Of a stretch of 64,000 nt of DNA, positions 8,408-45,456 are shown in pieces (position 1 is the first letter of the stretch; the number at the start of each line of letters is the position of its first letter). The notes under the pieces were generated by a model, which worked only from the letters and a program-made list of their open reading frames with translations, made no database searches and was not told where the DNA came from. The position numbers and the translations under genes are program-made. Location of the stretch: assembly GCA_963831715.1 (NCBI GenBank), contig CAWHRB010000002.1:225338-289337 (forward strand), read 5' to 3'. Source of the stretch: an uncultured Chloroflexia bacterium (lineage in GTDB: Bacteria > Chloroflexota > Limnocylindria > Limnocylindrales > CSP1-4).

Positions 8408-11400
8408 TCACCCAAGGCGGCGCATACCGGCGTGGCCCATCTGCCGAACGCCCCCCGGCTGTTCAGGTCCACCGGCCGTGGCAGCCACCTCGGCGAGCGG
8501 CTGGACCGCGTGCGCCACGAGATTGACGACCGACCCCTCGCGCTGCAGCTCGCCATCGACCAGCAGCAGGGCGTGGCGACGGACCACCCCGCGTAATCGC
8601 TCCCAGGTCGACGGCCAGAGCGTGACGTTGACCATGCCCGTCTCGTCCTCGAGCGCGAGGAAGACCGTGCCCTTGGCGGTCATCGGGTGCTGCCGGGTGA
8701 CCACCAGCCCACCGACCCGCACCCGGCCCGGCTTGCGGTCCGACAACGACGCGTTCGTCACCGCCCCGAGTCGATCCAGCGCCCCGCGGAACAGCCCGAC
8801 CACCTGACGCTGCGCATCGACGCCGAGGACCGCGTACGCATCCCCGAGCCGCTCCGATTCGGTGATCGCGGGGAGGTCCGGCACGTCGGTCGGCGGCAGG
8901 CGCAGATCCATCGGTCGACCGGCGGCGGCACCACGTTTCCCGGCAGCCCGACCGAGGGCCCGAACGGTTCGCCCGTCCATCCGGCCACGTGACGCCCCGG
9001 CGACTTCGCGCAGCTGCCACAGGAGCTCGCGCCGTGGCCGCCCGAGCGAATCCATCGCCCCACTTCGGATCAGCCGCTCGAGCACCTCCTCGGGCAGGTC
9101 GGTCCGTTCCACGACATCGACCAGGCTGCGGTATGGGCCGCGTGTTCGCTCGGCATCGAGCAGCGCCTCGTGCTGCTCACCGATCCCCTTCACGAGGTGC
9201 AGCCCGAGCCGGACGCCCCAGCCACCGGTCGCCGACGGCGTCCATCGCTCGCGAGCCTCGCTCGACGGGACGATGCAGCCAGAGGACATCACCGTGTCCG
9301 GCTGGCCGTCCGGCCCGACCCACTCGGTCGTGGTCTTGTACGACGACGTGTTGATATCGACCGGCAGGACCGCGACACCGTGGCGCTTCGTGTCGTTGAC
9401 GAGGACCTCGACCGGGTAGAACCCCATCGGCTGGGCGTTGATCAGGCCGACCAGGAACTGGGCCGGATAGAACAGCTTGAGGAACGACGACTCATAGGCG
9501 GTCCGGGCGAACGCCGCGGCATGGCTCTTGGCGAACCCGAACGAGGCGAACGCCGAGACCTGGCGGAACAGCTCCTGGGCATCGGGCTCGGTCATGCCCG
9601 GCTGGCGCAGCGCTCCCTCGACGAATTGCGCATGGAGCTTCTCCATCTCGCGCGTCGAGCGCCAGGTGCCCATCGCTCGGCGGAACCCATCCGACTCCGC
9701 CGGCGAGAACCCCGCGACCTCGATGGCGATGCGCATCACCTGCTCCTGGTAGAGGATCACCCCGAGCGTGTCCCGAAGCACCGGCTCGAGGCTCGGATGG
9801 AGGTAGACCACCGGCTCGAGACCCTGCTTGCGGCGCAGGAACGGATGGACGGCGTTGCCCTGGATCGGGCCCGGCCGGATGATCGCGACCTCGACCACCA
9901 GGTCGTCGAGGCTCTGCGGCTTCGACTTCGGGAGCGTCTGCATCTGCGCCCGGCTCTCGACCTGGAAGACCCCCACCGTGTCGGCCGCCTGAAGCATCTC
10001 GAACACCTCAGGGATCTCCTCGGGCAGACGGTCGAGGTCGAGGCAGATGGCGCAGTCGTGCTCGATGAGCTGGAGCGTTTCGTCGATCGCGGCCAGCATG
10101 CCCAGCCCGAGCAGGTCGAGCTTGATGAGCTTGAGCGTCTCGACGTCGCGCTTGTCGAACTGCACGACGACCCGGTCGGGCATCGTCGCCTTCTCGAGCG
10201 GCGCGATATCGATCAGCGGGGCGGCCGTCACCAGCATCCCGCCCGAATGGATCGACAGGTGGCGCGGGAAGCCGTCGATGCGCGCGCAGAACTCTAGCCA
10301 GCGTTCCCAGTGGGAGAGACCGACCGTCGAACCGCCACGGGCCCGGGGCGGCTCCTCCGGCTCGATGCGAGCGACGGAGCTCGTGTTCGCCGGCGTGGGC
10401 GGGGGATCCCACATGTTCGGGCGACCGAGCCGGTCGGTCTTGCGGGGCGGCGGCAGACTGCATGCCGCTCTCCGGGTCGAATACTCGGGCCGATGGTGTC
10501 GCGGAGCTCCGCCTCGGACCTCGGAGCGAACCTCGCCGATCCGCCGGATCCGCCGGCCTCTGACCTGCATAGCCGGTCCCCCGGCCGGCGCGCAGCCACG
10601 CGACGCTCGCCGGGGTGTCGCCCGGACCACCCTCGTCGTCGGACGGCCCGCCGCGGATGGTCGTCACCGGCGCGAGCGGATCCTCGCGGAAGGCCTCGTG
10701 GGAGGCTTCACGAGACGCGGCCCGCGCGTTGTCGGCGATAGTTTCGCTCCCAGCAGAAGATCCGGGACTTCGGGGGGCGGAACCTGGACTCCGGGGAACG
10801 GAACGAGCCTCCATGGGCCTCGGTTGAGCGTGGCCGAGCAGGTCGCTCGTCGCTTGTCCCCCGGGAAGCCCTGAAGATTTCGACCCCACCGGAAAGGGCG
10901 CGGACATCAGCTCGGGCCGGGTCGCGGGCCCGGGCGCGGACATCAGCTCGGGCCGGGTCGCGGGCCCGGGCGCGGACATCAGCTCGGGCCGGGTCGCGGG
11001 CCCGGGCGCGGACATCAGCTCGGGCCGGGTCGCGGGCCCGGGCGCGGACATCAGCTCGGGCCGGGTCGCGGGCCCGGGCGCGGACATCAGCTCGGGCCGG
11101 GTCGCGGGCCCGGGCGCGGACATCAGCTCGGGCCGGGTCGCGGGCCCGGGCGCGGACATCAGCTCGGGCCGGGTCGCGGGCCCGGGCGCGGACATCAGCT
11201 CGGGCCGGGTCGCGGGCCCGGCGCCATTGTCAGTGGCACGATCCGCACGAGTGAGCGTGGTCGCGTCCCCGGACTGCGATGTGGGTGCAACTCGGTGCAC
11301 GTTCGTGGCGTACGTGCCACTGCCAGTGGCGCCGGCAGCGGACGCGGCGCCGGCAGCGGACGTGGCGCCGGCAGCGGACGCGCGCTCCCCCTCGTGCCCC

Positions 11401-13238
11401 GCGGGTACCTCCCGCAGCCAGGCGAACGGTCGCGGCGCATCGAGGTCCTCCGGTTGAGGCGGCTGACGCCAGGGTGGTACTTTCCCGACGAGCGGGATCC
11501 GCGTGTTCAACTGACCCATCCGGTCGACGAGACCGTGCGCCTCGGCTTCCTCGGCCGCGCGTGCCTCGCCCGGCAGGCCCTCCCCCGTCCGTCGGAAGAA
11601 CTCGGCGAACCCGCCGTCGGCCTCGAGGTCGCGCCGGACCATCACCGAGTCGTATGTCTCGAGCGCCTTGGCCACCCGATCGACGAGCGGCCGCGGGAAC
11701 CCCAGCGCGTAGCCCACCTCACGGACCGCCGAACGCGCCCGGTACGTGACGAGGTTGCAGACCATCCCCGTGTGCTCCGGCCCGTAGCGCCGATAGATGT
11801 ACTGGATGACCTCCTCCCGGCGCTCCGAGCTGAAATCGATGTCGACGTCCGGGTACGTCGTCCGGCCGGGATTGATGAACCGTTCGAACAGGAGGTTGTG
11901 GGCGATCGGCTCGACTCGGCTGATCCCGAGCGTGTACGACACGATCGAGCTGGTCGCGCTGCCCCGACCCTGGGCGGGGATCCCCCGTTCCCTGGCGAAA
12001 CGCATGAGGTCCCAGCAGATGAGGAAGAACTCGGCGAGGCCGGCTCGCTCGATCACGTCGAGCTCGTGGGCGAGCCGCGTGACGACGGCGGAGGTCAGCG
12101 GGTGGTAGCGATAGCGTGCGCCCGCCCAGCACAGCTCCGACAGATAGGAGAACGGCGTCTCCCCGGACGGCACCGTGAACCCCGGGAAGCGGTACTGCTC
12201 GAATTCGAGATCGAGGACGCACGAGGCGGCCACCTCGACCGACGTCGCGATGCCCTCACGCCAGGCCCGCGCCGTGTCCGCGTCGAACCCGGTAGCGACT
12301 GCCGCCATCTCGTCGCCCGACTTCACGAACGACTCGGCATCGGCTCGCCGCAGGTCGGCCAGCGTGTCGAGCGTCCGGCCATGGCGGATCGCGGTCAGGA
12401 CGTCGTGGAACTCGCGGTCGTCCGGGGTCGCGTAGTGGACGTCGTTGGTGACGACCACCGGCAGACCGAGCTCCGCAGCGAGCGCCGCGGACTCCGCCAC
12501 GAGCCAGTCGTCATCGGGCAGTAGGTGATGCGAGAGCTCGATGAAGAAGCCGCTGGTCGACGGCCCGTCACCACGGCCGAAGAGCGCGGCGTACCGCTCG
12601 GCGACGGCACGGGCGCCGGCTCGATCGCCGACGCGCAGTCGCCGGGCGATCTCGCCGTCACGGCATCCGGACAGCGCGACGATGCCCTCGTGCTCCGCCT
12701 CGAGCAGCTCGTGCCGGAAGCTGGGCACGGCCTTCGTCCCGGCCATGTTCGCCCGGGAGATCACCCTGCTCAGGCTGCGCCAGCCGACCGGGGACCGCGC
12801 GAGCAGCACGAGGTGTGGGCCGCGCGCCCGGTCGCCGATGCCGCGGAAGTCCTCCTTGACCGGATCGCGGTGACCGGGAAGCTTCGCCCGCCGGGGCCTC
12901 GGTCGGGCCGGCCGGCCCTCGGCCACCAGTGGCTCCGTCGCCGGGGGTTCGGCGCGGCGCCGGCGCGGTCGACGCCGTGGCGGGATGACGACGGCATCGG
13001 GATCCGGCACGGCCGGATCGAGCAGGCCGATCTCCGTGCCGACGATCCCATGCAGTCCGGCCTCCTCGGCGGCACCCATGAACCGCACCGCGCCGTACAG
13101 GCCGTTGTGGTCGGTGACGGCCAGTCCGCGCAAGCCGTTGGCCACAGCACGTTCGACCAGATCGTCCGGCGCCGAGGCCCCGTCGAGGAACGAGAAGTTG
13201 GTGTGGGCGTGGAGCTCGGCGTAGGGGATGGTCGCCAC
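8408..13238 (-). CDS. dnaE2: Error-prone DNA polymerase DnaE2 (ImuC), interrupted by a ~1 kb low-complexity insertion containing a VNTR. The N- and C-terminal parts lie in different frames, so this is either a pseudogene or an assembly error.
   Basis: GTG at 13238 gives VATIPYAELHAHTNFSFLDGAS (PHP domain), then the palm GRGSATSSIVSYTLGISRVEP...PDVDIDF, in the frame of ORF 10008..13592. ORF 8408..10630 holds HWERWLEFCARIDGFPRHLSIHSGGMLV, ILYQEQVMRIA, FGFAKSHAAAFA, HhH and OB-fold regions. The two frames overlap across 10008..10630. A LexA box and a TATGAT -10 lie immediately upstream. Confidence 0.8.
10898..11221. repeat. Perfect tandem repeat, 9 copies of a 36-bp unit (gcgcggacatcagctcgggccgggtcgcgggcccgg), inside the dnaE2 insertion.
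   Basis: Nine identical copies can be read directly in the sequence. In the dnaE2 N-terminal frame they encode (GPATRPELMSAP)x9. Confidence 0.95.
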
Positions 13239-13262
13239 AGCGGTCGCCTCGATCGGACCAGA

Positions 13263-13291
13263 TGGAGGGGGTTGACAATCATAGAACAAAT
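13263..13291. promoter_or_regulatory. LexA (Cheo-type) SOS box AGAACAAATGTTCA within the dnaE2 promoter, with a TTGACA hexamer on the opposite side.
   Basis: GAAC-N4-GTTC palindrome at 13272..13285. On the minus strand it is followed directly by TATGAT, about 35 nt upstream of the dnaE2 GTG. TTGACA at 13263..13268 faces the other way. Confidence 0.75.
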
Positions 13292-13342
13292 GTTCACTGT
13301 GCGGACGCGAAACAAGTCGGGCGGGTTCGGCGTCTCTTGGGC

Positions 13343-13486
13343 ATGCACGCACCCATCCAGCTCGATCGCCCGCTCCGACCGGTCGCCCTGACCGCGCTCC
13401 GGACGGCACTGGGTGTGATGGGCGCGCTGCTGCTGATCCTCGTCGTCCTGCCCTCCCTCCTGGAGGCCCAGGCGGCGGCGATCTAG
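13343..13486 (+). CDS. Candidate small hydrophobic peptide (47 aa), divergent from the dnaE2 LexA box.
   Basis: MHAPIQLDRPLRPVALTALRTALGVMGALLLILVVLPSLLEAQAAAI has one predicted transmembrane helix. No SD is present. It lies just downstream of the divergent SOS box. Confidence 0.3.
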   Translation: MHAPIQLDRPLRPVALTALRTALGVMGALLLILVVLPSLLEAQAAAI

Positions 13487-13590
13487 CCACCACATAGCGT
13501 CTCGGCGCCTGGGGGCTCGGGACGATCGGCGGCCCAGACCGCGATGGTCGGGAGCCGACCTGCCGGACCGCTGGTGAGCATCGGTCCGGC

Positions 13591-13636
13591 ACACAGGACC
13601 CCGTCGCTGGGGGCGACGGGGTCCTGTCACGTCCGG
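13591..13636. repeat. Copy 1 of a ~45-nt hairpin element (ACAGGACCCCGTCGC-loop-GCGACGGGGTCCTGT); copy 2 is at 15391..15438.
   Basis: The 15-bp perfect stem in copy 1 is acaggaccccgtcgc-tggg-ggcgacggggtcctgt. Copy 2 is near-identical (acaggaccccgtcgc-attgg-gggcggcggggtcctgt). Together they bracket the gene 13775..15376. Confidence 0.6.
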
Positions 13637-13774
13637 CCCGGCTGGCACGTCGGCGATGCCCGTCAGCTCGGCCCCGGCAAGGTTTTCGTTCGACGTGTCA
13701 TCCGCGAACACGTTGTTGATGCGGGGGTCCCAGCGTGTCGACCATCAACGACCGGTCTGCACAGGGAGGAATGC

Positions 13775-15376
13775 ATGTATCGCGCGTCACCGACCCGCCT
13801 CCGCCACCGCAGCATCGCCGTCGGCATGGCGCTCCTCGGCGTCGTCGCGTCGGCCGCGCCGACATCGGCTGCGGGCTCGACCGCCCACGGCCCCAGTACG
13901 ACCACCGCACCCTATGTGCTCCCTGTGGCCGACGTCCGGATCACCTCGCTGTTGACCGTCGGTGATGCGGGCGCTGCGGGGAACGGGTACGAGATGGTCG
14001 GCATCCCGGACGGCCTCGGCCTCACCACGAGCGGCCGCAAGCTCACGATCCTCATGAACCACGAGCTGCGCGACGCACCCGGCCAGGAGCAGGGCATCGT
14101 CCGGCGCCACGGCACGATCGGTGCCTTCGTCTCCCGGTTCGTCATCGATCCGAAGACGCTCAAGATCACGAGCGGTTCGGACCTGGTCGACCCCGGCATC
14201 CGATATTGGGACTACCCGAACGGCGGGTACGTCACGACGGGCCCCCGGTTCGCCGACATGACCGCCCAACAGCTATCGTTCGGCCGGTTCTGCTCCGCCA
14301 GCCTGACCGACCCGGGTGTGCTCTACAACGAGCGGACGGGTGCGGGCTACCGGGGTCAGCTCTTCTTCGGGAACGAGGAGGACGGCGACGTCGGGCGATC
14401 GTTCGCGATCACGACGGACGGCCAGGCGACGGCCCTCCCCCGGCTCGGACTGTTCTCATGGGAGAACACGGTCCCGGCCGATAATCGCTCCGACACGACG
14501 CTCGTGATGGGCCAGGAAGACGGCCCGGGTGACGGCAGCCAGCCGTGGGTGTACGTCGGCAAGAAGACGAAGTCCGGCGGCCCGGTCGCGCGCGCCGGGT
14601 TGACGAACGGCCTGTCGTTCGTCCTCGACACGGTCGACTCGACCGTCACGGATGACGCCGAATTTCGGGCGACCTTCGGTGTGAACACGCCGGCACCCGT
14701 GAACCTCGCCAACGTTCCCTGGAGCCTGACTGGTGCGCAGCAGAACACGCTCGCCATCGAAGCCGGGCTGAGCCTCAACCGGATCGAAGACGGCCACTGG
14801 GATCCGAAGCATCGGAACGACTTCTACTTCCTGACCACCGAGGGTGGCGAGAAGTCGGGCACCGGCCTCGATGGCCGGGACGGCGGCGGCCTCTGGCGGC
14901 TGCGCTTCAAGGACATCGAGCATCCGTTCGCGGGCGCCACCTTGACCCTGCTGCTCGACGGCAGCCAGTCGCTCGGCGCGACGGAACCCAAGTTCAACAA
15001 GCCCGACAACATGACCATCGATCGCCACGGCAACCTGCTCATCCAGGAGGACCCGGGCAACAACAACCACCTTGCCCGGATCATCGCGTATCGGATCAGC
15101 GATGGGGCCCTCGGCGTCGTCGCCCGGTTCGACGAGGCGAAGTTCGGCGTCGGCGCGACCGACGATCCGGCACGCCTCACGACCGACGAGGAGTCGAGCG
15201 GGATCATCGACACCGAGCGCCTGCTCGGGAAGAGCACCTTCCTATTCGACGCCCAGATCCACACCGCCAAGAACCTGCCGGCCGGGACCGGACCGGGCAC
15301 GGTGCAAGAGTTCGTCGAGAACGGCCAGCTCCTGCTCCTCAAGGTCAAAGACTGGGACGACGTGTACGGCGACTGA
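13775..15376 (+). CDS. Secreted protein of unknown function, possibly PhoX/DUF839-like beta-propeller.
   Basis: GGAGGA SD precedes the ATG at 13775. Signal peptide MYRASPTRLRHRSIAVGMALLGVVASAAPTSAAGS. No confident family match; the start was moved inward from ORF-track position 13544. Confidence 0.55.
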   Translation: MYRASPTRLRHRSIAVGMALLGVVASAAPTSAAGSTAHGPSTTTAPYVLPVADVRITSLLTVGDAGAAGNGYEMVGIPDGLGLTTSGRKLTILMNHELRDAPGQEQGIVRRHGTIGAFVSRFVIDPKTLKITSGSDLVDPGIRYWDYPNGGYVTTGPRFADMTAQQLSFGRFCSASLTDPGVLYNERTGAGYRGQLFFGNEEDGDVGRSFAITTDGQATALPRLGLFSWENTVPADNRSDTTLVMGQEDGPGDGSQPWVYVGKKTKSGGPVARAGLTNGLSFVLDTVDSTVTDDAEFRATFGVNTPAPVNLANVPWSLTGAQQNTLAIEAGLSLNRIEDGHWDPKHRNDFYFLTTEGGEKSGTGLDGRDGGGLWRLRFKDIEHPFAGATLTLLLDGSQSLGATEPKFNKPDNMTIDRHGNLLIQEDPGNNNHLARIIAYRISDGALGVVARFDEAKFGVGATDDPARLTTDEESSGIIDTERLLGKSTFLFDAQIHTAKNLPAGTGPGTVQEFVENGQLLLLKVKDWDDVYGD

Positions 15377-15390
15377 CACAGCCTCCCGAA

Positions 15391-15438
15391 ACACAGGACC
15401 CCGTCGCATTGGGGGCGGCGGGGTCCTGTCGTGTCCCG
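15391..15438. terminator. Copy 2 of the repeated hairpin element, placed as a terminator after the secreted-protein gene.
   Basis: The 15-bp stem lies about 15 nt after the stop codon of 13775..15376. Confidence 0.55.
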
Positions 15439-15452
15439 GCTAGACTCCGCCG

Positions 15453-15977
15453 ATGTCCACGCGCGCCCGCCACTTCCTGCTGACGCTCCCTGCCACCGCC
15501 CTGCTCCTCGCGGCTTGTGGCTCGAGCCCGAGCCCGGCACCCGGCTCGATCGCGAGCCTGTCACCGAGCGCATCGACCCCCGCGACGGCCGCCCCGAGCG
15601 AGGGCTCCGGGTCAGCATCGCCCGCCGCCTCGGATGGCGGCCAGACGGACACGGCCTGGGGCCGCATCTGGGACGCGGTCCCAGCGGGCTTCCCGCGATT
15701 CCCCGGCGCCACCCCTGCCGACGACGCCAGCGGCGAGCCGGCGAGTGCCCGCTACGCCGTCCCGGGCGGCGATCCGCAGGCCATCGCGATGTGGATGCAG
15801 GGTGCGCTCGAGACAGCGACCTTCAGCACGACCGGCCTGAACGGTCCAGCCGAGGACGGTAGTTTCGTCATCGACTCGGTCGGCGAGGGCGACTGCGCGA
15901 TCCAGACGACCATCGCGCCGCTCGGCGACACGACCTTCATCACCGTCCTGTACGGCGCAGCCTGCCCCACGACCTAG
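15453..15977 (+). CDS. Lipoprotein of unknown function.
   Basis: MSTRARHFLLTLPATALLLAACGSSPSP carries the lipobox LAAC. A low-complexity S/P/A linker is followed by a globular C-terminal part. Confidence 0.6.
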   Translation: MSTRARHFLLTLPATALLLAACGSSPSPAPGSIASLSPSASTPATAAPSEGSGSASPAASDGGQTDTAWGRIWDAVPAGFPRFPGATPADDASGEPASARYAVPGGDPQAIAMWMQGALETATFSTTGLNGPAEDGSFVIDSVGEGDCAIQTTIAPLGDTTFITVLYGAACPTT

Positions 15978-16189
15978 GCGTGTCGGAGATGCGACACGCG
16001 CGGGCCTCGCCGGACGGTATGCTGCGTCCCGAACGCCCGGAGCCTCGGGACCGGGACGGGGGACATTCGCGATGCAGTCGACACGACCTCGGGAACTCGG
16101 CGCGCTGATCCTCGCGATCGGCGTCCTGCTCGTCATCTTCGTCGTCAGCCTGGCCCTCGGGGCCCCGCTTCGCTGATCGCTTCGGCGCC

Positions 16190-16438
16190 TTAGTCGTACA
16201 GGCGCTCGAGGTGCCAGGTCCCTGCGATGCGGTCCTGGTAGATGAGCGCGAGCCAGCGCTCCCCGGCCACCTTGGCGTAGTCGCGCGCGATCGGGTCGCG
16301 CCACCACGACTCCTCGACCCGCCATCGATTGCAGACCTCGACCGCCTCGCGCCGGCCGTTCCAGCTGATGGCCACGAGCCGGCCGTCGACATCGAGCTCG
16401 ACGTCGATGCGGGGGTGCTCGCGCAACAGTCGGGTCAT
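16190..16438 (-). CDS. Small conserved-looking protein (82 aa) translationally coupled to imuB through an ATGA overlap.
   Basis: MTRLLREHPRIDVELDVDGRLVAISWNGRREAVEVCNRWRVEESWWRDPIARDYAKVAGERWLALIYQDRIAGTWHLERLYD. Its ATG at 16438..16436 overlaps the imuB TGA at 16437..16435. Confidence 0.55.
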   Translation of the reverse strand: MTRLLREHPRIDVELDVDGRLVAISWNGRREAVEVCNRWRVEESWWRDPIARDYAKVAGERWLALIYQDRIAGTWHLERLYD

Positions 16439-17709
16439 GCCGGGGCCCCGCCACGGTCGTCCTCGGCAAGCCCGACCCCCTGCCACGTCCAGCGTTCCTC
16501 GGGCAGTGGCGCCTCCGGGTCGGTGATCGCCACGCGCCGGACTCGATCCTCGCCATAGGTCAGCGCGAGCCTCGCGAGCTGCCAATCGAGCCGTGCCGTC
16601 CGAGCCGCCTGCGGCACGAACAGCGGCAGTTGCTGACCGGCGGCCGGCGTCGTGCCGCGCAGCTCCAGGTCGAGTCGTTGGACCGCCGCCGGCGGCGGCT
16701 CACGCTCCAGCCGCGCGAACAGCAGCCGCTCGACCGCCTCGGCGTCCGCGGTGGGTTCCGGGAACCGCTGCTCGACCTCGATCCGCGGTGACGTCCCGGT
16801 GGGCGCGAACGCCAGATCGAGCTCCAGCGCCAGGATGGCGCGGTCAGCCGCCAGACCTCGAGCGCCGAGCTGCGCGGTAAGACCGGCCACCAGGCGATGC
16901 AGCACGAACCGGAGCGGTTCGAGTTCTTCGACCGGCGGCTCGATCGGCAGAGCGAGAGCCAGGCGCTTCGTCGCGCGCCGGGCGCGGAACGGCTCGGTCT
17001 CCTGGCCCCTCGCCCGGGCATGGAGGCGGCCGCCCTCGTCGCCGAACCGGGCGATCAGCGCGGACGTCGGGAGTTCCGCCACGGCACCGATCCGGCGCAG
17101 CCCGAACCGGGTGAGTCGTGCGCGGATGTCGGGGTCGGTGGTCAGGAGTGTGGACGGGCGATCGGCCAGGAACGCGGCTTCGTCGCTGGGGGGCACGATG
17201 ATCGGGGCATCCGGCCCTGCCGCCATCGCGGCGATGGTCGCCGCGAAGTGCGTGCCGGCGATCCCGACCCGTGGCTCCACCTCCCCGGGGAGCGCCTTCG
17301 CGACGGCGCCCGTCAGCCGCTCGGCGAGGACGGGCTCGGGACCCCACAAGGGCCCGAGGCCGTCGATGCCGACCTCGAAGAGCCCGAATGCCACGTCCCG
17401 TGGATCGGCACTCCCCGCCAGGCTCGGGCTGAAGGCCCCGAGCGCCTCGAACACGACCTCGGCAGTTCCCCGATCCGCCTCGGGATCGGGATCGATGAAG
17501 GTCGCCTCAGGGACGAGTCGATGCGCGCTTCCGAGCGGCATCCCCCGCCGGACGCCGAGCGCCCGGGCGGTCGGGTCGGCGTCGATGACCGGTCCCGGGT
17601 CCCACGGTCGACCGCCCAGCACGAGCGGACCTGTCGGGCAGGGCTCGGAGCGTCGGGCCAACGCCAGATGGAGTGGCAGGTGCGGCAGGAACAGGTGCAG
17701 CCGTCGCAT
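16435..17709 (-). CDS. imuB: ImuB, a Y-family-polymerase-like mutasome subunit.
   Basis: MRRLHLFLPHLPLHLALAR matches the typical DinB/ImuB N-terminus, and the protein lies downstream of imuA'. The start could instead be the ATG at 17736. It overlaps the 3' end of the imuA' ORF in another frame. Confidence 0.82.
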   Translation of the reverse strand: MRRLHLFLPHLPLHLALARRSEPCPTGPLVLGGRPWDPGPVIDADPTARALGVRRGMPLGSAHRLVPEATFIDPDPEADRGTAEVVFEALGAFSPSLAGSADPRDVAFGLFEVGIDGLGPLWGPEPVLAERLTGAVAKALPGEVEPRVGIAGTHFAATIAAMAAGPDAPIIVPPSDEAAFLADRPSTLLTTDPDIRARLTRFGLRRIGAVAELPTSALIARFGDEGGRLHARARGQETEPFRARRATKRLALALPIEPPVEELEPLRFVLHRLVAGLTAQLGARGLAADRAILALELDLAFAPTGTSPRIEVEQRFPEPTADAEAVERLLFARLEREPPPAAVQRLDLELRGTTPAAGQQLPLFVPQAARTARLDWQLARLALTYGEDRVRRVAITDPEAPLPEERWTWQGVGLAEDDRGGAPA

Positions 17710-18574
17710 GGTGGATCTCGCGATCGGGGGCCTCATGAGCGGGGGCTTGGTCGATCAACAGGGCGTCCCGAGCGAGGCACGTGTCCCGCTCGCCGCCCTC
17801 GGCGTAGAGGATCCGGAGCGTCGCCCGGCGGCCAGGCGGTCCGTGCCGGTTGTGCGCGACGAGCGCCTCGGTCCGTTGCCCGACGACGTCACGCCCGAGA
17901 CGCACCCACGACCGGCGCGCCAGCTCGAGTCGGATGCCGGTCGACTCGGCGACCGCGGTCGCCAGACCGCCAGCGAGCCCCGGCGCATCGAGGATCAGCA
18001 GCAGCGTCTCCGCGCGCCGCGCGAGCGCCGCGAGCCGATGCAGCCGGTCACCGATCCTCGACGGCGTGTCGGTCCGAGCCAGTCGGCCGCCGGGCAGGTC
18101 GAGGACCAGCAGGTCGACCGAGCGGCCGGCGAGCAGGCTGCCCGCGATCGACAGGCCCTCGTCGAGGCTGGCCGGCGTGATGACGACGAGCCAGTCGAGA
18201 TCGACCCCGCGCGCGACGGCCTCGACCGGGTCGAAGCTCCGCGACAGGTCGAGCCAGGCCACGACCGACCCCTGTGCCTGGGCCTCCGCGGCGACCCGGA
18301 GGCTCAGGGTGGTGCGGCCGCTCGTACCCTCGCCGCGGATCGCGACGCTGGCCGATCTCGGCAGACCACCCGGGCCGAGGATGGCATCGAGCGCCGCGAA
18401 GCCGGTGCGGATGACCCGCTCGTCGGGTCGGGGGTCGTACTGTGGCTGGACGTCTTCGACCGGGTCGGGCGCGGGCGCCAGGGCCAGCGCGCCGATGACC
18501 CCCGGAGCTGCGGCACCCCAGCGCGCCCGGAGGCCCGCAACAGCAGCATCCACATCACCCCGCCCGGTCGACAT
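17507..18574 (-). CDS. imuA: ImuA' (RecA/SulA-fold mutasome protein).
   Basis: FAALDAILGPGGLPRSASVAIRGEGTSGRTTLSLRVAAEAQAQGSVVAWLD is a RecA-like P-loop region. It is the first gene after a LexA box. The long low-complexity C-terminus overlaps imuB. Confidence 0.8.
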   Translation of the reverse strand: MSTGRGDVDAAVAGLRARWGAAAPGVIGALALAPAPDPVEDVQPQYDPRPDERVIRTGFAALDAILGPGGLPRSASVAIRGEGTSGRTTLSLRVAAEAQAQGSVVAWLDLSRSFDPVEAVARGVDLDWLVVITPASLDEGLSIAGSLLAGRSVDLLVLDLPGGRLARTDTPSRIGDRLHRLAALARRAETLLLILDAPGLAGGLATAVAESTGIRLELARRSWVRLGRDVVGQRTEALVAHNRHGPPGRRATLRILYAEGGERDTCLARDALLIDQAPAHEAPDREIHHATAAPVPAAPATPSGVGPTLRALPDRSARAGRSTVGPGTGHRRRPDRPGARRPAGDAARKRASTRP

Positions 18575-18584
18575 CGGACGCCGA

Positions 18585-18600
18585 TAATAGAACAGATGTT
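18585..18600. promoter_or_regulatory. LexA (Cheo-type) SOS box TAGAACAGATGTTCTA, fused to the imuA' -10 element.
   Basis: On the minus strand the sequence reads TAGAACATCTGTTCTATTATcggcgtccgATG. This is GAAC-N4-GTTC, then TATTAT, then 9 nt, then the imuA' ATG, which implies a leaderless transcript. Confidence 0.8.
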
Positions 18601-18642
18601 CTAGTCAGGCAAGGGCGAAATCGACTGACGCGGCAGCATCGA

Positions 18643-18846
18643 CTTGCATCGGATGCAAGCAACGCGACCAGCCCGCAGATCGACACTGACCTGCATGCGC
18701 CGGGCGCAGCATCGGATGCCGTTTCGGCGACCACGTGGGACCAACATGCCATTCCAGTGATCGATCGCGGGCACGTTCCGACATCTGATGACGTCTCGGC
18801 GACCACTTCCCCCCCAGATACGTCATGTGCTTGCATCCGATGCGAG
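18643..18846. promoter_or_regulatory. Array of three CTTGCATC-N-GATGCAAG-type palindromes in the imuA'/response-regulator intergenic region.
   Basis: 18643..18659 cttgcatcggatgcaag is a perfect 8-1-8 palindrome. 18709..18719 gcatcggatgc. 18830..18846 cttgcatccgatgcgag. tcggcgaccac is also repeated, at 18722 and 18793. Confidence 0.5.
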
Positions 18847-18934
18847 CTGACCCGGCCGAACCGGCGTCAGATGCCGGGTCCGCGACGACCCGCGTCACGT
18901 GATCGACACGGCCGAGCCGTAGCCTCGGCCTACC

Positions 18935-19678
18935 ATGCTCGTGATGCCCACCCAGGCCCCCGACCAGGCGATCCCGACCGCGCCGATCCTCGTCGTCGAC
19001 GACGACGCCAAGATCGTCCGCCTGGTCCGGACCTACCTGGAGCGCGACGGCTTCAGCGTCGTGACGGCTGCGGACGGGCCTGCAGCGCTCGACGCGATCG
19101 AGACGCACGCACCGGCGCTCGTCGTCCTCGACCTGATGCTTCCCGAGCTGGACGGACGTGCGGTCATCCGCGCCGTCCGTCGGGATGAGGAAGCCGGGCG
19201 AACGCCGATCCTGGTCCTGTCTGCCCGCAGCTCGACCATCGACCGAATCGCCGGCCTCGAGGATGGGGCAGACGACTACCTGCCCAAGCCGTTCTCCCCG
19301 GCAGAGCTCGTCCTGCGCGTGAAGTCGATCCTCCGACGGACCGCGGCGACTGCCGCGCCGGACCGTCCCGGGCCGACCATCCGCCACGGCGACCTCACCA
19401 TCGACCCCGCCCGGCACGAGGTCCGCCGCGGCGACACGCCCGTCGACCTGACCCGTGTCGAGTTCAAGCTCCTCTCGGCGATCCTCGCCGCCGACGGCCG
19501 CGTCCTGTCGCGAGACCAGTTGCTCGACGCGGTCTACGGCCACGAGTCGACCGACATCCTCGACCGCACGATCGACGTCCATATCCGCCGGCTCCGCGAC
19601 AAGCTCGACGACGATCCCGATGCACCTCGCTACGTCCAGACGGTCCGCGGCGTCGGCTACAGGGCGGCGAGGTCGTGA
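18935..19678 (+). CDS. OmpR-family two-component response regulator.
   Basis: Receiver-domain motifs ILVVDDD, LVVLDLMLPELDG and ADDYLPKPF, followed by the winged-helix region VEFKLLSAIL...TVRGVGYR. Confidence 0.92.
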   Translation: MLVMPTQAPDQAIPTAPILVVDDDAKIVRLVRTYLERDGFSVVTAADGPAALDAIETHAPALVVLDLMLPELDGRAVIRAVRRDEEAGRTPILVLSARSSTIDRIAGLEDGADDYLPKPFSPAELVLRVKSILRRTAATAAPDRPGPTIRHGDLTIDPARHEVRRGDTPVDLTRVEFKLLSAILAADGRVLSRDQLLDAVYGHESTDILDRTIDVHIRRLRDKLDDDPDAPRYVQTVRGVGYRAARS

Positions 19679-20811: not shown

Positions 20812-21720
20812 CTACGGCAGCCCGATCGCGATCATCCCGACGAGGATGCCGCCCAGGCCGACCCACTGGATCGGCCGGAGACGCTCTCCCAGCAGCGCGA
20901 CGGCGACGACGATCGTGACCGCCGGGCCGAACGACGAGGCGAGACCAACGAGCCACGTCTCGGCATGCTCGAGGCCGTAGGCGAACGACGCCAGGCCGAC
21001 GATGTCGAGGACGCCGGACAGGACCACGAAGCCGATCACGCGGGCGTCAGCGCGACCCGCGCCGTCGTCGCCCGGGGCGCCCTCGATCATCGGCGCCGCC
21101 AGACGCCGGAACATGGTCGTGGCAACGATCAGCACGATGACCGAAAGGATCGCGTTTGCCGTGCGGGCGACGACGACGACCTCGAACCATGGCGCCCGGT
21201 CTATGACGATGTCGCTCGTGATCGTCATCGTGGCGAACAGGATCAGGGCGACGACCGCGAAGGCGACGCCGGGACTGGCGAAGCGCGTGTTCCGCCAGCC
21301 GTGCTCGAAGGCGATCCCGGTCAGCACCACGCCGGTCGTAGCGACCGCGGCGCCGATGGCCTGGAGCGGGGTCAGCGTCTCGCCTCGGATGACCACGGCG
21401 AGCACAACGGTGAGACCGCCATACGCCGCGACCATCCCGCTGACGACGGCGATCGGGCCGATCCGCAGTCCGGTGAAATAGGTCAGGTAGGCGCCCGCGC
21501 CGAAGAGCCCGACCAGCGCACCGCCCGCCAGCACGAACGGATCATCGGACAGCGGCGTGCCCGTCGCGATCGCCGCGATCCAGACGAGGACGGCGCCGAC
21601 CAGCTGCATCCCGGTCGTGACCCGCAGGCTGCCGATCCGCCGGCTCGCGAGCGCCGAGAAGAGATCGAGCGTACCCCACGAGATAGCGGCGCCGAGTCCG
21701 GTCAACAGGCCGATGGGCAT
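20812..21720 (-). CDS. EamA/DMT-family transporter.
   Basis: Ten hydrophobic helices arranged as a duplicated EamA-like protein, 302 aa. Confidence 0.8.
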   Translation of the reverse strand: MPIGLLTGLGAAISWGTLDLFSALASRRIGSLRVTTGMQLVGAVLVWIAAIATGTPLSDDPFVLAGGALVGLFGAGAYLTYFTGLRIGPIAVVSGMVAAYGGLTVVLAVVIRGETLTPLQAIGAAVATTGVVLTGIAFEHGWRNTRFASPGVAFAVVALILFATMTITSDIVIDRAPWFEVVVVARTANAILSVIVLIVATTMFRRLAAPMIEGAPGDDGAGRADARVIGFVVLSGVLDIVGLASFAYGLEHAETWLVGLASSFGPAVTIVVAVALLGERLRPIQWVGLGGILVGMIAIGLP

Positions 21721-45257: not shown

Positions 45258-45456
45258 TTGGAACATGACATGTTCCGTCCGACCGGCGAACCCGCGCTTT
45301 TCGGTCGATCGGAACATGTGGGGTTCCAGATCACCGGTAATCGGGCATTTCGACGGCTCAGACAGGCCTTCGGCGGTCGCTTGGAACATGTGATGTTCCA
45401 CGTGCGGATGAGGACGTCGAATCAGGACGTCGGCCGGGCCCGGAACTCTGGTTCGG
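45258..45456. promoter_or_regulatory. Three GGAACATG-N-CATGTTCC-type palindromes plus a Cheo-like box, in the obg upstream region.
   Basis: 45258..45277 ttGGAACATGaCATGTTCCg. 45311..45327 GGAACATGTGGGGTTCC. 45381..45400 ttGGAACATgtgATGTTCCa. 45441..45456 cGGAACtctgGTTCGg. Confidence 0.5.

Follow-up and report, generated by a model that had tools for sequence, protein, structure and literature searches.

Putative LexA operators fused to the promoters of a split imuA'-imuB and dnaE2 mutagenesis cassette in Limnocylindria

Introduction

The LexA motif is the palindrome GAAC-N4-GTTC in both Firmicutes and Actinobacteria and takes variant forms in Chloroflexi, and the core LexA regulon has been defined in the same work (PMC4951493). 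In Bacillus subtilis and other Firmicutes, in which LexA is DinR, this 12-bp core forms the Cheo box, which lies over promoter elements and mediates repression by occlusion, and a related LexA site has been reported for Dehalococcoides (Chloroflexi). In mycobacteria, LexA regulates a split mutagenesis cassette, in which a RecA-fold gene and an apparently inactive Y-family ImuB homologue share one operon (imuA'-imuB, Rv3395c-Rv3394c), dnaE2 (Rv3370c) is unlinked, and a GAAC-N4-GTTC box precedes each unit. The actinobacterial LexA motif reads TCGAAC-N4-GTTCGA. In M. tuberculosis, UV-induced transcription of imuA' begins immediately 3' of the LexA site (PMC8682763), and transcripts that begin within 5 bp of the start codon are counted as leaderless (PMC3898074). 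Leaderless genes are additionally marked by a TA signal about 12 bp upstream of the start (PMC3160421).

Here we analyze a 64,000-nucleotide stretch of DNA from the MAG of an uncultured soil bacterium of the Limnocylindria (Chloroflexota) (hereafter the window), together with a comparative set of 80 related loci or genomes that supplies 73 imuA' and 64 dnaE2 promoters (137 in total). A sequence-only reading of the window had described two SOS promoters, before dnaE2 and before imuA', in which a LexA Cheo box is fused directly to a TATnAT -10 hexamer. We consider it likely, with a probability of roughly 0.8, that both palindromes are LexA operators of the Cheo-box type (TAGAAC-N4-GTTCTA) embedded in promoters of the housekeeping sigma factor.

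Results

The fused design is exact at both sites and recurs in the 137 related promoters. Specifically, the core GAACATCTGTTC at 18601..18590 on the minus strand abuts the hexamer TATTAT (18589..18584) before the imuA-like gene, and the core GAACATTTGTTC at 13295..13284 on the minus strand abuts TATGAT (13283..13278) before dnaE2. Searched as one element with up to two mismatches allowed, box plus -10 hexamer (GAACANNTGTTCTATNAT) matches the window twice, against 0.01 matches expected from shuffles, and the core GAAC-N4-GTTC by itself has five occurrences where 0.92 would be expected. The cores at 14984 and 36291 (within ORFs) and at 45443 (between ORF ends) lack both TA flanks and a -10 hexamer and were rejected as operators. 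A weight matrix trained on the 137 related sites assigns 33.2 bits to the imuA' operator and 22.8 bits to the dnaE2 operator; these two are the only sites of the window in the range of true sites, the next best scoring 10.5 bits. Across the 80 genomes the operator is position-exact in the 137 promoters and the flanking intergenic DNA varies freely, and about 145 of the 157 GAAC-N4-GTTC cores present in 1.37 Mb (window plus loci) sit at imuA', imuB or dnaE2 promoters. As is typical of Cheo-type sites, both palindromic cores match GAAC-N4-GTTC exactly and overlap promoters of core SOS regulon genes. An Rfam search of the window returned only two tRNAs, both distant from the operator sites.

Two more boxes, 160 nt apart, are found in a low-G+C, apparently non-coding stretch of L027 (3818..3988). 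They face each other and each abuts a TAnnnT-like hexamer, GAACATCCGTTC being followed by CACTAT on the plus strand and GAACACTTGTTC by TATTTT on the minus strand, a layout reminiscent of SOS-controlled toxin/antisense pairs.

The predicted operator of the imuA' operon (TAGAACAGATGTTCTA, 18588..18603, core 18590..18601) is a perfect 16-bp palindrome. The -10 hexamer TATTAT (18584..18589, minus strand) opens with a TA that is also the outer flank of the operator, and the -35 hexamer TTGCCT (18607..18612, minus strand) lies 17 nt upstream of the -10, with the operator filling the spacer. This is the only sigma-70-like promoter in 13000..19200, where 0.2 would be expected. The -10 is separated from the ATG (18574..18572) by the 9-nt G+C-rich stretch cggcgtccg (18575..18583, minus strand), exactly the distance that the sequence-only reading had given, and this stretch holds no Shine-Dalgarno sequence. 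Transcription is predicted to start within it, 0-3 nt before the ATG.

In line with this architecture, the 73 related imuA' promoters consist of cTTGtc (-35), a 17-nt spacer containing TAGAACannTGTTC, TAnnnT, 9 nt and ATG. In particular, TAnnnT is found at the -10 position in 73 of 73 and TTGnnn is kept at the -35, upstream of which the sequence is unconserved. Seventy of the 73 keep 9 nt from -10 to ATG and the other three have 10 nt, the stretch has a conserved CGTCCG core, and every promoter scored (all 70 distinct sequences) leads to ATG. Third-codon-position variation sets in from codons 5-7 on, and ATGnCGACC is conserved at the nucleotide level. TA..TA flanks surround the box in 65 of 73 relatives. 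Because the left TA is kept in these 65 boxes with no -10 hexamer on that side, the operator is best written TAGAAC-N4-GTTCTA, the right-hand TA of this 16-mer doubling as the start of the -10. An SOS box for this organism had been proposed from the two window sites, and the comparative data on 80 genomes bear out such a definition in the form given here.

The predicted dnaE2 operator (TAGAACAAATGTTCAC, 13282..13297, core 13284..13295) has an imperfect flank on the side away from dnaE2. Its -10 hexamer TATGAT (13278..13283, minus strand) adjoins the operator, and conservation of a -35 is absent. Likewise, in the 64 related dnaE2 promoters the box is directly followed by TATACT or a close variant (TATACT in 38, TATGAT in 11 and other TAnnnT variants in the rest), and the hexamer 17 nt upstream of the -10 is unconserved. 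The leader region from the -10 to the GTG start codon (13238..13236) covers 39 nt (13239..13277, minus strand) rather than the roughly 35 nt first estimated. It carries the Shine-Dalgarno sequence GAGG at 13250..13247, and the 5' UTR is predicted to be about 33 nt long, with transcription starting near 13271-13273. Relatives mostly start with GTG, 37-41 nt past the -10, with GGAG 6-8 nt before the start, and show a gCCCC motif just past the expected transcription start. A leaderless gene has its transcription start within 5 nt of the start codon and no Shine-Dalgarno sequence; dnaE2, with 39 nt and GAGG or GGAG, does not belong to this class. The earlier description of both genes as leaderless or near-leaderless is thus retained for imuA', which is predicted to be near-leaderless with 9 nt and no Shine-Dalgarno sequence, and dropped for dnaE2.

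RNAalifold finds no conserved consensus structure for the dnaE2 leader, and a structured leader masking the Shine-Dalgarno sequence was rejected on this ground. A 4-bp CCGG...CCGG hairpin over the first Shine-Dalgarno bases is present in 32 of 54 distinct related dnaE2 leaders against about 10 expected, five related hairpins being compensatory variants (CCGC/GCGG, CCGT/ACGG, CCGA/TCGG), and is missing from the leader of the window itself.

The imuA-like gene (17507..18574, minus strand) encodes a RecA-fold accessory protein of 355 aa (Pfam RecA, 91 bits). Its product scores 96 bits with the RecA equivalog model, far under the cutoff of 325, and therefore is not RecA itself. With an additional weak match to ImuA_translesion (E = 1e-6), it is by sequence an ImuA/ImuA'-type accessory protein. 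Homologues of about 355 aa that are 66-95% identical come from Candidatus Limnocylindrales, Limnocylindria, Chloroflexota and 'uncultured Chloroflexia' MAGs, many of which have contigs of megabase scale, whereas an exact look-up of the ImuA' sequence of the window returned no recorded contig. The G+C content of the relatives, 69-74%, brackets the 69.5% of the window. The actinobacterial framing implied by the name imuA' was accordingly apt for the kind of system and misplaced for the taxon.

The second gene, imuB (16435..17709, minus strand), encodes a 424-aa Y-family polymerase homologue (MRRLHLF...; Pfam IMS, with DinB-family matches below cutoff). ImuB proteins are catalytically inactive and carry a clamp-binding motif; visual inspection of the window protein shows a QLPLF and other residues in place of the N-terminal acidic ones (MRRLHLFLPHLPL). 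Its start is placed at ATG 17709 because in L050 imuB stands alone, apart from imuA' and behind its own box and TATCAT, 13 nt before the ATG. The imuA' and imuB genes overlap out of frame by 203 nt (17507..17709), and relatives preserve both the site of the imuA' stop and the length of the overlap (203 or 206 nt). ImuA' of L050, where imuB lies elsewhere, matches the window protein over residues 1-278 only. The tail of about 70 residues might be no more than a passive consequence of the imuB coding sequence, or it might act as a coupling device.

The operon has a third gene, orf82 (16190..16438, minus strand, 82 aa), whose ATG shares bases with the stop codon of imuB (ATGA). Identity across 73 related loci is 76-98%, and the unrelated contig L183 also has a homologue, placed between imuB and dnaE2. 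Pfam gives no match for orf82, and a DUF6504-like ORF from the L201 lexA operon resembles it weakly (E = 8e-4). It appears to be a conserved cassette gene that has gone unrecognised. The ORF 15612..16556 was discarded as third operon gene, being an Arg-rich wrong-frame artefact over the real gene, orf82, in another frame. The imuA' unit and dnaE2 share the minus strand about 2.9 kb apart (orf82 end at 16190, dnaE2 box at 13295), with plus-strand genes between them, so the earlier statement that imuA'-imuB and dnaE2 are separate units about 3 kb apart is correct as to the two units, and it had missed orf82 as a third gene.

The dnaE2 gene for an error-prone C-family polymerase (8408..13238, minus strand) is split in the window into an N-terminal part (13238..~11600) and a C-terminal part (10630..8408). 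The former comprises PHP and DNA_pol3_alpha positions 1-184 and scores 404 bits with the error-prone DNA polymerase subfamily; the ORF 8408..10630 comprises DNA_pol3_alpha positions 193-260 and the finger, HHH_6 and OB domains. By domain content, both ORFs together are a DnaE2-type polymerase. The split consists of an insertion of about 0.7 kb (11400..10698, relative to the closest relative L001, which lacks it) plus a +1 frame break. In relatives dnaE2 is one ORF of 1360-1490 aa, and several related loci have other frame breaks; the break in the window may be a real pseudogene or expansion, or an assembly error. The insertion holds a perfect 9.1-copy 36-nt tandem repeat (10896..11221; GPATRPELMSAP in the N-terminal frame). 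Between DNA_pol3_alpha positions 184 and 193, in the palm domain, the Limnocylindria DnaE2 proteins are all extended by a long insertion with little conservation (about 10300..11600 in the window), which accounts for their length of 1360-1490 aa.

Divergent from dnaE2, a small plus-strand ORF (13343..13486) encodes 41-47 aa with one hydrophobic helix (MHAPIQLDRPLRPVA...LLILVVLP...) and is present in 48 of 64 loci and in the metagenomic contig L166. It is preceded by the element tGAAACA-N14-GGCGTC (13309..13334), then 8 nt and the ATG, and this element looks like an ECF-sigma promoter that would give a leaderless mRNA. It usually lies 13 nt from the dnaE2 LexA box, with an insertion of about 55 nt between the two in several loci.

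We infer LexA as the protein that binds both operators from the company that the 16-mer keeps elsewhere. In a metagenome scan for the 16-mer (random sample, 120 contigs, many phyla), it lies directly upstream of lexA in L086, L105 and L111 and of recA in L081 and L147, which supports LexA as the binder. Additionally, it precedes imuA, imuB or dnaE2 homologues of other clades in L112, L116, L166, L177, L183 and L189. The lexA promoters of L111 and L203 have the same fused design, with TTGACA, 4 nt, the box and TATAAT.

Two lexA contigs outside Limnocylindria share an operon architecture: in both L201 (3001..5404) and L203 (6001..8349), an FtsK/SpoIIIE-like ATPase gene and a small ORF (about 125 aa) come after lexA, and L201 has one more ORF behind them, which is DUF6504-like.

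The palindrome could instead be the operator of a dimeric repressor of the mutasome genes other than LexA, its likeness to the Cheo box being convergent or inherited from a lost LexA. Consistent with this, lexA was found neither in the window nor in 1.3 Mb of related loci, and LexA-independent damage regulators exist in other phyla, such as PafBC in mycobacteria and DdiA in Myxococcus. Specifically, tblastn with LexA and RecA queries from E. coli and B. subtilis detects neither lexA nor recA in the window or the 80 loci, imuA' being the only RecA-like match, which agrees with the absence of both genes from the window noted in the sequence-only reading. A Limnocylindria lexA was likewise not recovered by the 16-mer metagenome scan or by a protein search seeded with L111 LexA, whose hits carried no taxon labels, the two long contigs looked up having 57-61% G+C and hence not being Limnocylindria, and the literature yielded neither LexA together with Limnocylindria nor SOS work on the class. 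However, the absence of lexA covers the 21-kb flanks around imuA' and not the rest of the genomes, and the 16-mer is identical in form to the sites before lexA and recA in other contigs. Moreover, the boxes sit on exactly the core LexA regulon genes (PMC4951493). We regard a repressor other than LexA as improbable.

Another reading concerns the sigma factor at imuA', where the region might also, or instead, carry an ECF-sigma-type promoter, AGAACA-N14-GGCGTC, with CGTCCG serving as an alternative -10 and not as the discriminator. ECF promoters generally take the form AAC...CGT, and the AAC-N17-CGTC spacing at imuA' is the same as in the element before the small ORF beside dnaE2, both being conserved. 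The usual ECF spacing, on the other hand, would put the start probably inside the imuA' frame, past the invariant ATG, so that the conserved ImuA' N-terminus could not be expressed. The GAAC is already accounted for as a LexA half-site, an ECF sigma gene is absent nearby, and GAAAC-N16-18-CGTC is not enriched, with two occurrences in the window against 2.1 expected, the second lying inside a gene. An ECF promoter at imuA' is therefore very improbable, and as the main promoter it was rejected on the start position and the lack of motif enrichment. The PafBC/RecA-NDp motif has a short spacing; a PafBC/RecA-NDp-like element was dismissed, since the conserved TTGTC lies at the normal -35 distance of 17 nt. 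Finally, that the palindromes stand beside AT-rich hexamers by chance and without a regulatory role has the shortness of the motif in its favour and nothing else, and is hardly credible given two matches where 0.01 are expected and a position held exactly in 137 promoters.

For imuA', the length of the leader can be judged against the habits of the clade. We counted TAnnnT-Nk-start combinations with a long ORF across the window and the related loci, and found sharp peaks at k = 6 (144) and k = 7 (118) over a background of about 10-20. These peaks indicate that leaderless genes are common in the Limnocylindria clade, with a usual spacing of 6-7 nt; about ten such examples lie within the window, for instance at 21720(-), 27918(+), 58489(-), 5960(-) and 18944(+). 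This spacing agrees with the signal at about 12 bp (PMC3160421) and with the within-5-bp criterion (PMC3898074). Judged by spacing, leaderless mRNAs in Limnocylindria appear far commoner than the approximately 5% given for Chloroflexi genomes in 2011 (PMC3160421). The 9 nt of imuA' exceed the clade norm by 2-3 nt, so that its mRNA should carry a leader of 2-3 nt if the polymerase does not select an unusually distant downstream start. Purines are available at positions 9 and 10, and a start there could shorten the leader to 1 or 0 nt. The absence of a Shine-Dalgarno sequence, the fixed spacing, the constant ATG and a coding signal that begins at the ATG together point to an imuA' mRNA that is predicted to be near-leaderless, not strictly leaderless. 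The distant imuA' homologues of L177 and L189 have a spacing of 10 nt, and the dnaE2 homologues of L166 (6 nt) and L116 (10 nt) look leaderless, unlike dnaE2 in the lineage of the window.

Discussion

We propose that LexA would control the two units through one operator type placed in two ways. At imuA', the operator would occupy the 17-nt spacer between the TTGnnn -35 and the TAnnnT -10, and at dnaE2 it would abut a -10 that functions although no -35 is recognisable. In either case, the outer TA of the operator supplies the first two bases of the -10, and a bound LexA dimer would cover DNA that RNA polymerase must contact and melt, keeping the genes off. Upon DNA damage, RecA filaments would trigger self-cleavage of LexA, and both units would be transcribed. 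The imuA'-imuB-orf82 mRNA would begin 0-3 nt before the invariant AUG without a Shine-Dalgarno sequence, and the dnaE2 mRNA would carry a leader of about 33 nt with a GGAG-type Shine-Dalgarno sequence.

The fixed spacing of 9-10 nt between -10 and AUG, the invariant AUG and the nucleotide-level conservation of ATGnCGACC raise a further idea, namely that the mutasome accessory operon of Limnocylindria and some neighbours is gated twice, by LexA and then by an obligatory leaderless or near-leaderless mRNA. We put this forward tentatively and think it rather unlikely. If it were true, imuA' translation would hang on leaderless initiation, which is favoured under stress, the 203-nt imuA'/imuB overlap would set the ImuA':ImuB ratio, and SOS mutagenesis would have a translational layer of control that is undescribed for this cassette.

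The LexA reading extends Cheo-box control of the imuA-imuB-dnaE2 cassette to Limnocylindria, an abundant uncultured class of soil and freshwater, and offers a well-supported operator consensus, TAGAAC-N4-GTTCTA, together with a promoter model from which the SOS regulon of Limnocylindria MAGs can be predicted. It leaves the understanding of the SOS response unchanged; a repressor site over the -10 is what one would expect of damage-inducible polymerase genes. The design, a Cheo-type LexA operator occluding the promoters of a mutagenesis cassette that is split as it is in mycobacteria, is ordinary and already understood.

Compared with leaderless mRNAs of Actinobacteria and Deinococcus-Thermus, imuA' similarly has TAnnnT shortly before the start and no Shine-Dalgarno sequence, but the first T of its -10 lies 15 bp before the ATG and not about 12. 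The lexA promoters of L111 and L203 share the fused design with the window, whereas there the box controls lexA itself, the leader has a Shine-Dalgarno sequence, and the G+C content is 57-64% against about 70%, so these contigs are not Limnocylindria. With the Cheo box of Firmicutes, the window shares the 12-bp core over promoter elements; its own form, with the flanking TA that doubles as the -10 start, is derived from comparative sequence alone. With the mycobacterial split cassette, the window shares the pairing of a RecA-fold gene and a possibly inactive ImuB homologue in one operon, a separate dnaE2, a GAAC-N4-GTTC box before each unit and, as predicted here, regulation by LexA. It differs from that cassette in belonging to the phylum Chloroflexota, class Limnocylindria, in box flanks of TA...TA, and in that a PafBC-type second promoter is not evident. 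Furthermore, its two units share a strand and are separated by only about 3 kb, the imuA'/imuB overlap is 203 nt long, and it has the extra conserved orf82 and a large palm-domain insertion in DnaE2.
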